IMG/VR virus record: IMGVR_UViG_3300025886_001957
Coordinates: 14,463-78,462 of that record
DNA length: 64,000 nucleotides
DNA from: a virus
Direction: 5' to 3' (one strand)
In this document: piece by piece, positions 28,321-30,596 of the stretch
Position numbering within the stretch: the first letter of the stretch is position 1
How the letters are laid out: every line of letters begins with the position of its first letter
Translations under genes and position numbers: made by a program
The notes under the pieces: model-generated
The model's input: only the letters and a program-made list of their open reading frames with translations
Database searches by the model: none
Told to the model about the DNA's origin: nothing

Positions 28321-28356
28321 AAAAAAAGCCCCTAATAAAATTAATTACTAGAGGCT
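28321..28356 (-). terminator. Intrinsic terminator (attenuator 3:4 stem)
   Basis: AGCCTCTAGTAA-TTAATT-TTATTAGGGGCT followed by a T-run. Confidence 0.8.
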
Positions 28357-28384
28357 GCTTAAAATAACTTTTTAAAAAGTCACG

Positions 28385-28444
28385 TCAAGACATACCCCCT
28401 AATAGCGGCCAATATGTAATATATATTGTATTAGTCTTGATCAT
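28385..28444 (-). CDS. Putative attenuator leader peptide MIKTNTIYITYWPLLGGMS
   Basis: GAGAG SD 8 nt before the ATG, promoter just upstream, terminator just downstream. Confidence 0.6.
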   Translation of the reverse strand: MIKTNTIYITYWPLLGGMS

Positions 28445-28465
28445 GTTATCTACTCTCTGTTGTTA

Positions 28466-28500
28466 TATTTATATAATACACTATTATTTGATGATGTCAA
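28466..28500 (-). promoter_or_regulatory. Overlapping sigma70 (TTGACA-N16-TATTAT) and late (TATAAATA) promoters for the leader/tRNA unit
   Basis: Both motifs read directly from the sequence. Confidence 0.7.
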
Positions 28501-28507
28501 CCTTTAT

Positions 28508-29065
28508 TTAATGCCACTGAGGTCCGTGTACCCATCCAACTAAACTATAACGTATACCTTCGGTCACTGGTTTAACTTGATGAAATACATAGCTTGGAAA
28601 CACAATCATATCACCTTTATTGAGTTTTGCTGTCTGAATACGGTCAGGTATATCAGGTGCTCCGTTTTCTGTTTCAAACTCGCCACCTTTAAAATCGTCA
28701 TTAAGTAAAATTGTAAAACTTACTTTGCGTACAGTCTCTCGAGTAAAGTCTAAATGATTATCAGTATGCCATCGATAATTTTGCTCTTTTTTACCATCGT
28801 ATTGTGTAAATTGTAATGGTTCTAAGAGGTCAATATTAAAATGCCAATGCTTGTTATTTGCTGTTTGTACTACTTTAGATATAACTTTTAGCAATGGTCC
28901 TGTTTTTTCAGATAATTCAATCCAACTTATATCACTATCACGTTGGCTATGATCGTCGGTACATGTAGCAGTTTCAATAGCAGGTGCAAGTTTATGAGTT
29001 AAATCAATAAGATCTTGATCAAAAACGTTTTTATATACTATATGGGTTAAACTTCGTATAGTCAT
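28508..29065 (-). CDS. 2OG-Fe(II) oxygenase (PKHD/prolyl-hydroxylase-like)
   Basis: WHTD, KGGEF, FPSYVFHQV, RYSLVGW. Confidence 0.9.
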   Translation of the reverse strand: MTIRSLTHIVYKNVFDQDLIDLTHKLAPAIETATCTDDHSQRDSDISWIELSEKTGPLLKVISKVVQTANNKHWHFNIDLLEPLQFTQYDGKKEQNYRWHTDNHLDFTRETVRKVSFTILLNDDFKGGEFETENGAPDIPDRIQTAKLNKGDMIVFPSYVFHQVKPVTEGIRYSLVGWVHGPQWH

Positions 29066-29721
29066 CTAAGTTTTCCTTTAAATCCAGGAGGTACTGCTAA
29101 CGACATTCTACCGTCAAACAGATTGTTTGTTCCGTAAGGACCGTTAACATCATTATAATGTAAAAATACCTGGGCATGCCTTGTTCCTTGAAATTTTTCT
29201 CTCCAATGTTCAATCTCTTCACCTTTATACACTATCATATCTCCTGGATTTAGATATATCGGAGTGCCTGTATTTCCAACTTCTCCCGAACCATCGACCC
29301 ACATTGGCCAATTATATGTTTTGTCATCATTTTCATAACCTATACACAATGTAGTTGAAATTTCACACGATGGTCTATCTTTATGCCTCTCTAAGGTGTC
29401 GCCATTTTTATATAGACGCCAGTAGGAATAAGTTGGTGCTAATTGAAGTCCTGTGGTTTTTTCTAACACTGAAGCAGACTTGCCTAATAATGCTTCCATT
29501 ACACCGTCAGCATAACAGGAATATGTATCAACTACCTGTGGATCATTAAATCCGCCGTCAGTTTCTGGTCGATAATATTCATAATTATTATTTAATAATA
29601 AACTTGCTCTACCAGACCTTAATAAACAATAATTGTAAATAAATTCAGTAAACTCTTTAGTGAGAAAATTTCTCACTACTGCATAATTATGTTGTTTAAA
29701 AAATTCTTGATCAGTTGACAT
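29062..29721 (-). CDS. 2OG-Fe(II) oxygenase-like protein (marine-phage type)
   Basis: HKDRPSCEIS, GDMIVYKG, EHWR, QVFLHY. Confidence 0.78.
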   Translation of the reverse strand: MSTDQEFFKQHNYAVVRNFLTKEFTEFIYNYCLLRSGRASLLLNNNYEYYRPETDGGFNDPQVVDTYSCYADGVMEALLGKSASVLEKTTGLQLAPTYSYWRLYKNGDTLERHKDRPSCEISTTLCIGYENDDKTYNWPMWVDGSGEVGNTGTPIYLNPGDMIVYKGEEIEHWREKFQGTRHAQVFLHYNDVNGPYGTNNLFDGRMSLAVPPGFKGKLR

Positions 29722-29732
29722 TGATTATCCTT

Positions 29733-30596
29733 TTAATAGCTTTGAGCAAGTCGCCACATTAAATATTCTTTTGATTCAATTGGCGGATAGTGCGGCGATT
29801 CGTGAAATCGCAAGTTTTCTACTATAGTTCCAGGTGTAGGATCTACAAAGTGCGGCATACTGTAACGTGGCAAATGTATATGACTGTTTACAACTCTGTG
29901 TTTAGTTGATTTAAAATAATTATTTGTCCATCGTTGTAGTAAATCACCAATGTTTACAACCACGCCATTATCAGCATAAGGAACAGGATGCCAGTTACCT
30001 TTAATATCTTGTACTTCCAATCCGGGTACGTCATTAATTTGCCAAAGCAATGTAATAGTTCCATAGTCACTATGTTCTCCAATTCTCATTTGGCGATCGT
30101 TAATATGACCATCATATGCCGGATAATGAATTACTCTTGTAGTATTAAAAGGTTTTAAATGTGCATCAACTAATGTAGTTCCACATTTGAGTATTTGATC
30201 AAATCTCTCTAATATTCTTAGTGTAAGTTTGTCAGCTACATTAATACTTTCAAGTGCTGTTGCTTTAAAGTTTGGCAACTCAGTCGGCCATAAATGATTT
30301 GGCATACGTTGGTTATTATAGTTAAAACTTTCTTTCATATCTTTTGGAGCAGTTGGGTCAACATTTTCGGCCCCCATAATACTATAGCCTAAATTAGTAT
30401 CACCTTCATACGGATATTTGTTTTTAATTTTAAGATCAAGTTCGAAGAAATTTTTCATTTCGTCAAACCAACAGTTTATATCAGATTGTTCTGTGTCGGT
30501 TAAGCAATTGGTAAAAACAGCAAATCCAGTACTAGTATATGCATCTTCAATATGTTGATCTGAGTACGAAGATTTAAAGTCAATCACCGGAATCAT
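29733..30596 (-). CDS. Isopenicillin-N-synthase-family 2OG-Fe(II) oxygenase
   Basis: HSDYGTITLL, VNIGDLL, STKHRV, RYSMPHF. Confidence 0.9.
   Translation of the reverse strand: MIPVIDFKSSYSDQHIEDAYTSTGFAVFTNCLTDTEQSDINCWFDEMKNFFELDLKIKNKYPYEGDTNLGYSIMGAENVDPTAPKDMKESFNYNNQRMPNHLWPTELPNFKATALESINVADKLTLRILERFDQILKCGTTLVDAHLKPFNTTRVIHYPAYDGHINDRQMRIGEHSDYGTITLLWQINDVPGLEVQDIKGNWHPVPYADNGVVVNIGDLLQRWTNNYFKSTKHRVVNSHIHLPRYSMPHFVDPTPGTIVENLRFHESPHYPPIESKEYLMWRLAQSY

Follow-up and report, generated by a model that had tools for sequence, protein, structure and literature searches.

Introduction

Transcription attenuation by translated leaders is known for amino-acid genes, with the E. coli trp operon and its leader trpL as an example. 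In E. coli, an attenuator of this type with the leader pheM is also present before pheST, where it acts on an aminoacyl-tRNA synthetase, a chromosomal gene of the bacterium. For the leader peptide TnaC, Trp12 is critical and Asp16 and Pro24 are conserved; TnaC senses free tryptophan, and the ribosome stalled at its stop codon blocks Rho. For trpL of Sinorhizobium meliloti, it was shown that the terminated leader RNA, rnTrpL, is stable and that rnTrpL and the peptide peTrpL can act in trans (PMC6614838, PMC7298713). The use of attenuation on tRNA genes is probably unpublished, since no description of it, in phages or otherwise, was found in a search of the literature.

Phage tRNA genes are usually seen as constitutive helpers in codon usage or as spares against tRNA-cleaving defences. 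To our knowledge, next to nothing has been described about the control of their expression. A survey of pelagimyophages contains no mention of an element like the one presented here (PMC7029224). This element is located upstream of the tRNA-Trp gene of an uncultured phage. From its sequence and that of its relatives, it is likely to be a ribosome-dependent leader-peptide attenuator, which would couple the synthesis of tRNA-Trp and of the tRNAs following it to the speed of UGG decoding.

Organization of the locus

The stretch of DNA analysed, referred to as the window, has a length of 64,000 nt and is contained in a 96-kb viral contig from IMG/VR. The initial annotation had listed a promoter, a Shine-Dalgarno (SD) sequence, a 19-codon open reading frame (ORF), a terminator, tRNA-Trp and tRNA-Tyr in this order, and all of these parts were found on the minus strand. 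In window coordinates, the features are the following:

28500-28495, minus strand: promoter -35 box TTGACA, separated by a 16-nt spacer from the -10 box; both boxes together have 11 of 12 consensus matches
28478-28473, minus strand: promoter -10 box TATTAT, sigma-70-type
28473-28466, minus strand: T4-late-like motif TATAAATA, overlapping the -10 box
28457-28453, minus strand: Shine-Dalgarno-like GAGAG, 8 nt before the ATG; AAGGA in relatives
28444-28385, minus strand: leader ORF of 19 codons plus TGA, MIKTNTIYITYWPLLGGMS; ATG at 28444-28442, TGA at 28387-28385
28414-28412, minus strand: Tyr11 codon UAU, candidate control codon next to Trp12
28411-28409, minus strand: Trp12 codon UGG, the proposed control codon, invariant in relatives
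28445-28381, minus strand: P1 domain (segments 1:2, anti-antiterminator), -18.0 kcal/mol
28445-28434 and 28391-28381, minus strand: P1 outer helix of start-codon arm and stop-codon arm, enclosing P1a and P1b
28428-28410, minus strand: P1a, inside P1
28409-28394, minus strand: P1b, CCNCC with the G-run, inside P1
28380-28367, minus strand: P3, a small A/U hairpin at the tip of the antiterminator
28404-28346, minus strand: antiterminator hairpin (segments 2:3), -19.6 kcal/mol
28356-28327 (hairpin) and 28327-28321 (U7), minus strand: intrinsic terminator (segments 3:4) with a 12-bp stem and a 6-nt loop, -15.9 kcal/mol
28320-28245, minus strand: structured insert of 76 nt from the U-tract to tRNA-Trp, -22.4 kcal/mol; many relatives lack it
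28244-28171, minus strand: tRNA-Trp (anticodon CCA), first gene of the operon
28170-28051, minus strand: structured spacer of 120 nt from tRNA-Trp to tRNA-Tyr, -29.9 kcal/mol
28050-27967, minus strand: tRNA-Tyr (anticodon GTA), second gene of the operon

The region from 28500 to 28466 had been annotated as a dual promoter. Both the sigma-70-type promoter and the overlapping TATAAATA are present, while their dual use is only plausible; in the relatives, TTGAC of the -35 box is retained in 61 of 64 elements and TATAAATA in 29 of 64. Close to the promoter, the short ORF is preceded by a ribosome-binding site, and it is predicted to be translated. The SD sequence of the window, GAGAG, is weak. The next promoter-like site begins at about 27957, past tRNA-Tyr. 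The leader region has a minimum free energy of -39.1 kcal/mol compared to -25.1 kcal/mol for shuffled sequences (z = -4.3), and none of 200 shuffles folded as well.

Distribution of the element and its association with tRNA-Trp

The first relatives were reached through the neighbouring ligase gene. In these, the homologous stretch extends from the -35 box through the U-tract, and tRNA-Trp is always next. A scan of viral contigs with a motif internal to the leader, blind to tRNAs, identified 64 distinct elements, and 144 distinct elements were obtained from viral and metagenome contigs, all of them sequences of uncultured marine phages. After 62 of the 64 elements, tRNA-Trp(CCA) was detected by ARAGORN; of the remaining two, one locus is truncated and the other contains a tRNA-Trp missed by the program. 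In the set of 144, tRNA-Trp is the first gene after the element in every readable relative. An alignment of upstream regions in related phages, proposed as a check in the initial annotation, revealed that the leader ORF and segment 2 are conserved. Since the covariance model gives one copy per locus, the element is not a repeat.

A match to the leader was not found in cultured phages, and for the neighbouring ligase the identity to any cultured phage does not exceed 35%. The leader motif was searched as an exact match in 185,579 bacterial and archaeal species genomes and was absent from them, so that no host-derived origin was found.

The tRNAs located behind tRNA-Trp vary and include Pro, Cys, Ser, Tyr, Met, Ile, Gln, Arg and others, and tRNA-Trp never has another tRNA before it in these phages. 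Of the 69 tRNA-Trp genes that are first in a run, 52 have a strong terminator in the 120 nt upstream, compared to 3 of 87 other first-in-run tRNAs. Analogous leaders were sought before the other tRNAs of these phages, and none was found. Some relatives are leaderless and have a plain promoter of the same kind 8-10 nt before tRNA-Trp; the leader is therefore an optional control module inserted between promoter and tRNA-Trp. In the window, tRNA-Leu(TAG) at 33221-33098 on the minus strand is leaderless and immediately preceded by an extended -10 promoter close to the consensus. This is the same arrangement as in the leaderless relatives and an internal contrast to tRNA-Trp.

In about half of the first 64 elements, tRNA-Trp starts 0-2 nt past the U-tract, and the remaining ones contain structured inserts of 20-95 nt before tRNA-Trp. 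In many relatives, the mature tRNA begins directly at the hairpin and its U-tract, which would fit an element for the processing or stability of the tRNA precursor, for example a 5' leader for RNase P or RNase E, with an incidental ORF; structured spacers are also common in these tRNA clusters. However, a GC-stem followed by U7 is a canonical terminator, it is rare before other first-in-run tRNAs, as given above, and the conserved SD, start codon and frame as well as a UGG that is shifted but kept would be left unexplained. This explanation is considered highly improbable.

The leader ORF and its Trp codon

A readable ORF is present in 142 of the 144 distinct elements, and all 142 contain Trp. 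In the relatives, the ORF comprises 15-24 codons and starts with ATG or GTG, and an SD-like word is located upstream of the start in nearly all of them. Insertions and deletions in the ORF are mostly in frame and reach the same stop; two small groups are frame-shifted and end at new stops, which are located in the P3 loop or shortly before segment 2.

Trp is the sole invariant residue of the ORF and is found at codon 10-13. Two lineages differ in having C-W-P or W-C-P at this site, where TGT-TGG is changed to TGG-TGC by two substitutions, which shifts the UGG by one codon. With the shift to W-C-P, P1a acquires an A.G mismatch and P1b loses its first pair. Since Trp is retained despite the mismatch, the codon is kept at a structural cost. 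Furthermore, the third base of UGG is invariant though it is not required for pairing, and the pairs formed by its U and first G never covary, while neighbouring pairs do. The invariant UGG is cognate to tRNA-Trp(CCA), which is always the first gene behind the leader. The initial annotation had preferred Tyr8 as the stall site with the better geometry. This was not borne out, since Tyr8 is variable and common in relatives without tRNA-Tyr, and Trp12 is conserved instead.

The variation in the ORF has no periodicity over the three codon positions (0.385, 0.405 and 0.396 bits), so that the peptide is not under selection on the protein level. A functional micropeptide as the main reading was rejected on the basis of the absent periodicity and of Trp as the only invariant residue.

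The default fold

The homologues were folded individually, and the same default state was obtained, consisting of P1, P1a, P1b, P3 and the terminator. In P1b, the CCNCC located directly after UGG pairs with an invariant G-run. In 63 distinct sequences, aligned with a covariance model in an alignment that was fitted to the structure and is biased in its favour, 90.9% of the cells are paired in the terminator-state structure, compared to 41-51% when the partners are slid. Double changes occur in 14 pairs of the terminator state, a number reached by none of 500 shuffles. The change from ATG to GTG covaries with a change from U to C in the partner arm (AU 43, GC 17). In the terminator, which with its 12-bp stem and U7 is located between the leader ORF and tRNA-Trp, six pairs have double changes in the relatives.

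For two of the pairings that had been assigned to segments 1:2, TCAAGAC/GTCTTGA (P1) and CAATAT/ATATTG (P1a), compensatory changes were found in the relatives. The pairing CTAATA/TATTAG, which had been given as the core of 1:2, is absent from the minimum-free-energy fold and is not conserved. Segment 2 had also been described as a near copy of the 3' arm of the terminator; this holds for the window, but the relatives share only the G-run.

The antiterminator and the position of the ribosome

In the alternative fold, the linker and the basal GCCCC in the 5' arm of the terminator become the partners of the G-run and of the 3' arm of P1. The 2:3 pairing TATTAGGGG/CCTCTAGTA of the initial annotation is present in the window, but it is only the base of a longer hairpin at 28404-28346. 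Folding under a ribosome mask had been suggested there as a further check. With the RNA truncated at the terminator loop and a ribosome positioned so that UGG is in its A site, folding gave the antiterminator in 59 of 60 sequences, and its energies range from -15 to -25 kcal/mol in 12 representatives. In the 63 aligned sequences, 84.5% of its cells are paired compared to 41-59% after sliding, and its column-wise covariation is not above that of shuffles. In 54 of 60 sequences, its stability exceeds that of controls with a shuffled linker. In lineages in which P3 and the linker are replaced, the new sequence is again complementary to the 3' arm of P1. The antiterminator would explain the strong conservation of the linker, which otherwise is single-stranded. 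An internal promoter, TTGACG-16-TATTTT, was considered as the reason for the conservation of the linker and was rejected, since lineages with a replaced linker lose the -10 box and keep the complementarity to segment 2.

The P1 domain, the antiterminator and the terminator are mutually exclusive and all conserved, with similar median energies in the family of -19.2, -20.2 and -17.7 kcal/mol, respectively. The antiterminator excludes the terminator and the helix overlapping the ORF, and its overlap with the 12-nt terminator arm is limited to the basal 5-9 nt. With the stalled ribosome in place, the terminator state is still about 12 kcal/mol more stable, so that the switch must be kinetic. A kinetic switch would need a pause of RNA polymerase, for which a site is assumed.

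The distance from a codon in the A site to the leading edge of the ribosome is about 12 nt, the spacing seen in toeprints. In the relatives, the first base of UGG is located 12-22 nt from the first G of the G-run and never closer. A stall at Trp12 had been expected in the initial annotation to cover part of segment 2; instead, a ribosome with UGG in its A site ends one nt before the G-run. The stop codon begins 11 nt past the G-run in 56 of 60 sequences, and therefore a terminating ribosome covers segment 2. The spacing of UGG and of the stop codon thus follows the two placement rules of classical attenuators, by which a stall at the control codon frees segment 2 and a ribosome at the stop masks it.

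These structures also bear on the question whether promoter, ORF and terminator form an independent small gene, coding for a micropeptide or a structured small RNA, with the tRNAs being transcribed by constitutive read-through of a leaky terminator. The unit has its own promoter and terminator, and the product released by termination or by RNase P would be a stable RNA of about 145 nt with a hairpin and a U-tail. Attenuator RNAs and leader peptides acting in trans have been described for Sinorhizobium meliloti (PMC6614838, PMC7298713). However, the peptide is not conserved as a protein but only in its Trp, and a small gene would need neither a conserved alternative hairpin overlapping the base of its own terminator, nor a 12-nt spacing rule, nor a position abutting tRNA-Trp every time. 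We regard a separate gene as quite unlikely.

Proposed mechanism

A ribosome-dependent attenuator before phage tRNA genes, as put forward in the initial annotation, is strongly supported by the conserved SD, start codon and frame, the invariant Trp, the mutually exclusive structures, the footprint geometry and the exclusive link to tRNA-Trp. We infer that the ORF is translated, that ribosomes stall at UGG, that a polymerase pause keeps transcription and translation in step and that read-through responds to the stall. In the proposed mechanism, transcription of the leader of about 145 nt would start at the host-type promoter, and a ribosome would load at the SD and AUG as both emerge and translate the 19-codon ORF. 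If no ribosome loads, P1, formed by the start-codon arm and the stop-codon arm, and P1b would form, followed by the terminator, and transcription would stop before the tRNAs. A ribosome running through to the stop codon, which is located inside segment 2, would cover the G-run and the 3' arm of P1, so that the terminator would form as well. When charged tRNA-Trp is scarce, the ribosome would wait at the single UGG, holding segment 1 and ending before the G-run. Segment 2 would then pair with the linker and the basal GCCCC, and RNA polymerase would read into the tRNA genes. This would constitute a negative feedback, in which tRNA-Trp is made when the decoding of UGG is slow.

The same switch might depend on the ribosome but respond to another signal, like the general capacity for elongation or initiation, slow bond formation at Trp-Pro(-Pro) or Trp-Cys-Pro involving EF-P, or free Trp as sensed by TnaC. 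Pro codons follow Trp or Trp-Cys in most leaders, the position of Trp at codon 10-13 is comparable to that in TnaC, and with a single control codon any early slowing of the ribosome would favour the antiterminator. However, pairing with the G-run also accounts for the CCN codons, and the G-run would be masked by a ribosome that has stalled at the stop codon or after Trp has moved to the P site, which would favour termination. In addition, the terminator is of the intrinsic type, unlike the Rho-dependent one of tna, and the decoding of UGG is the simplest explanation for the exclusive link to tRNA-Trp. A signal of this kind is judged to be unlikely.

The single UGG of the leader is a weak point of the attenuator proposed here. 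Classical attenuators usually have two or more control codons, and with only one the response would be shallow unless tRNA-Trp is truly limiting.

Parts of the locus are covered by assembled contigs from four marine metatranscriptomes. In a relative that lacks the insert, one contig spans the leader, the terminator and tRNA-Trp; it also extends upstream of the predicted start, and DNA carry-over is possible. The metatranscriptome contigs of a relative skip exactly the stretch of the 76-nt insert.

Flanking codons and the following tRNAs

The codons at positions -1, +1 and +2 of Trp were compared with the cognate tRNAs of the operon in 120 elements, using Fisher's test. For Cys, the odds ratio (OR) is 33 (p = 7.5e-7), with a flanking Cys codon in 63 of 64 operons containing tRNA-Cys. 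Tyr has an OR of 31 (p = 1.7e-5; 7 of 9 clusters) and Ser an OR of 13 (p = 2.7e-5). For Pro, the OR is 0.96 (p = 1), the Pro codon being nearly universal. Met and Ile revealed no association in the 120 elements; their tRNAs are present in some operons, and their codons never occur beside UGG. For Asn, no association of codon and tRNA was found in the same set. Phylogenetically independent contrasts point in the same direction and are too few for significance.

The idea of the initial annotation that leader codons track the identity of the downstream tRNAs agrees with the counts for Cys, Ser and Tyr, including those for Tyr11 and tRNA-Tyr, but it is not significant when relatedness is allowed for and is taken as a lead only. 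Tyr11 is rarer than Tyr8 in the relatives, and a role of Tyr11 as a control codon, as read from these codon counts, is only suggestive. A wider reading is that the leader is a programmable sensor of decoding capacity, in which the flanking codons evolve to match the tRNAs of the operon and replacement tRNAs are switched on when the matching host tRNAs run short. Such a depletion could follow, for example, from a mismatch in codon usage, from host shut-off or from defence nucleases that cleave tRNAs. For the leader RNA of about 145 nt, a further function in trans after its release would be conceivable. This wider reading is regarded as possible but doubtful.

Phage context and neighbouring features

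The ferrochelatase of the viral contig resembles that of Pelagibacter myophages, and related contigs have a size of up to about 275 kb. A permuted tmRNA of the alphaproteobacterial type is located at 57397-56970 on the minus strand (RF01849, 131.8 bits), with the tag peptide ANDNYAPDMAMAA. The presence of this tmRNA suggests an alphaproteobacterial host.

The stop codon of a gene for a 2OG-Fe(II) oxygenase (28508-29065, minus strand) lies just before the promoter of the leader. Upstream of the tRNA module, at 28508-30596 on the minus strand, two different 2OG-Fe(II) oxygenase genes of 185 aa and 287 aa flank an unassigned ORF of 219 aa. The gene for the 185-aa oxygenase is present at this position in the closest relative only.

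The 76-nt insert was also identified between terminator and tRNA-Trp in the relatives L101, L146 and L170. Diverged copies are located elsewhere, at L097:116-172, L119:1132-1195 and L192:3515-3572; in L097 and L119/L120, they lie between tRNA-Glu and tRNA-Ser. In L096, L102 and L087, the place before tRNA-Trp is taken by another structured insert, which is unrelated and has a length of about 90 nt. The inserts are possibly spacer RNAs of the tRNA clusters that are mobile or undergo processing. For the 120-nt spacer, a copy with 92% identity was found right after tRNA-Trp in L096 and L238; part of this spacer had been described separately in the initial annotation as a mimic of a tRNA with a CCA end.

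In the closest relative, of which the leader is 96% identical, and in two leaderless relatives, the ordinary 74-nt tRNA-Trp is replaced by a tRNA of 85-86 nt with a CCA anticodon and a long variable arm (L002:3755-3839, L129:2187-2271 and L121:24-109). A tRNA of class-II shape reading UGG is unusual.

Comparison with known systems

In a scan of Rfam at the gathering score, only tRNA and tmRNA families were identified. Weak matches at permissive thresholds to SpF39, PyrR, the trpB motif and the PyrG leader, with E values of at least 0.3, were dismissed as generic alignments of a hairpin plus terminator.

Like the T-box (RF00230), the phage element would choose between terminator and antiterminator by the status of a tRNA. 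The T-box, however, binds the uncharged tRNA through a specifier loop and contains the T-box sequence, whereas the phage element has a conserved ORF; no match to RF00230 was found at E values up to 10. With TnaC, the element has in common a short leader peptide with a Trp near codon 12. In contrast to TnaC, the phage peptide ends with Gly-Met-Ser and has neither Asp16 nor Pro24. Its ORF is followed by an intrinsic terminator, and a ribosome stalled at the stop codon would promote termination.

The trpL of Sinorhizobium meliloti is a Trp attenuator of the alphaproteobacterial type, and the phage carries a tmRNA of the alpha-type; no sequence similarity between the two leaders was seen. The action in trans known from S. 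meliloti leaves a second role possible for the phage leader. The multivalent attenuators of thr, with Thr and Ile codons, and of ilvGMEDA, with Ile, Leu and Val codons, are comparable in that the phage leaders possibly contain several kinds of control codons, but in the phages the association of codons and tRNAs is not significant allowing for relatedness. The pheST attenuator is a described case of leader-peptide attenuation of a component of the translation apparatus; its target is a synthetase, however, and the gene is bacterial.

The E. coli trp attenuator (trpL; RF00513) has a leader ORF close to the promoter with Trp control codons, mutually exclusive segments 1:2, 2:3 and 3:4 and an intrinsic terminator, all of which are found in the phage element. 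In both systems, the stop codon is located such that segment 2 is masked by the ribosome that terminates there, and of the terminator only the basal part of the 5' arm is included in the antiterminator. The switch of the phage would be kinetic, as it is in the trp operon. With the covariance model Trp_leader (RF00513), no match to the phage leader was obtained even at E = 10, and there is no sequence similarity. In contrast to trpL with its two Trp codons, the phage leader has one UGG, it is phage-borne, and its start codon is sequestered in the default fold. While trpL controls biosynthetic enzymes, the phage element would regulate tRNAs, so that the molecule sensed is also the product. If this is true, the phage would gauge the speed of codon decoding by means of the ribosome and feed it back on the matching tRNA. 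With about 145 nt the element is compact, it exists in many natural variants including the leaderless arrangement, and it could serve as a portable sensor of tRNA availability. Compared to trpL, a textbook mechanism would then be extended to a new class of targets, the decoder instead of the amino acid, and to viruses.
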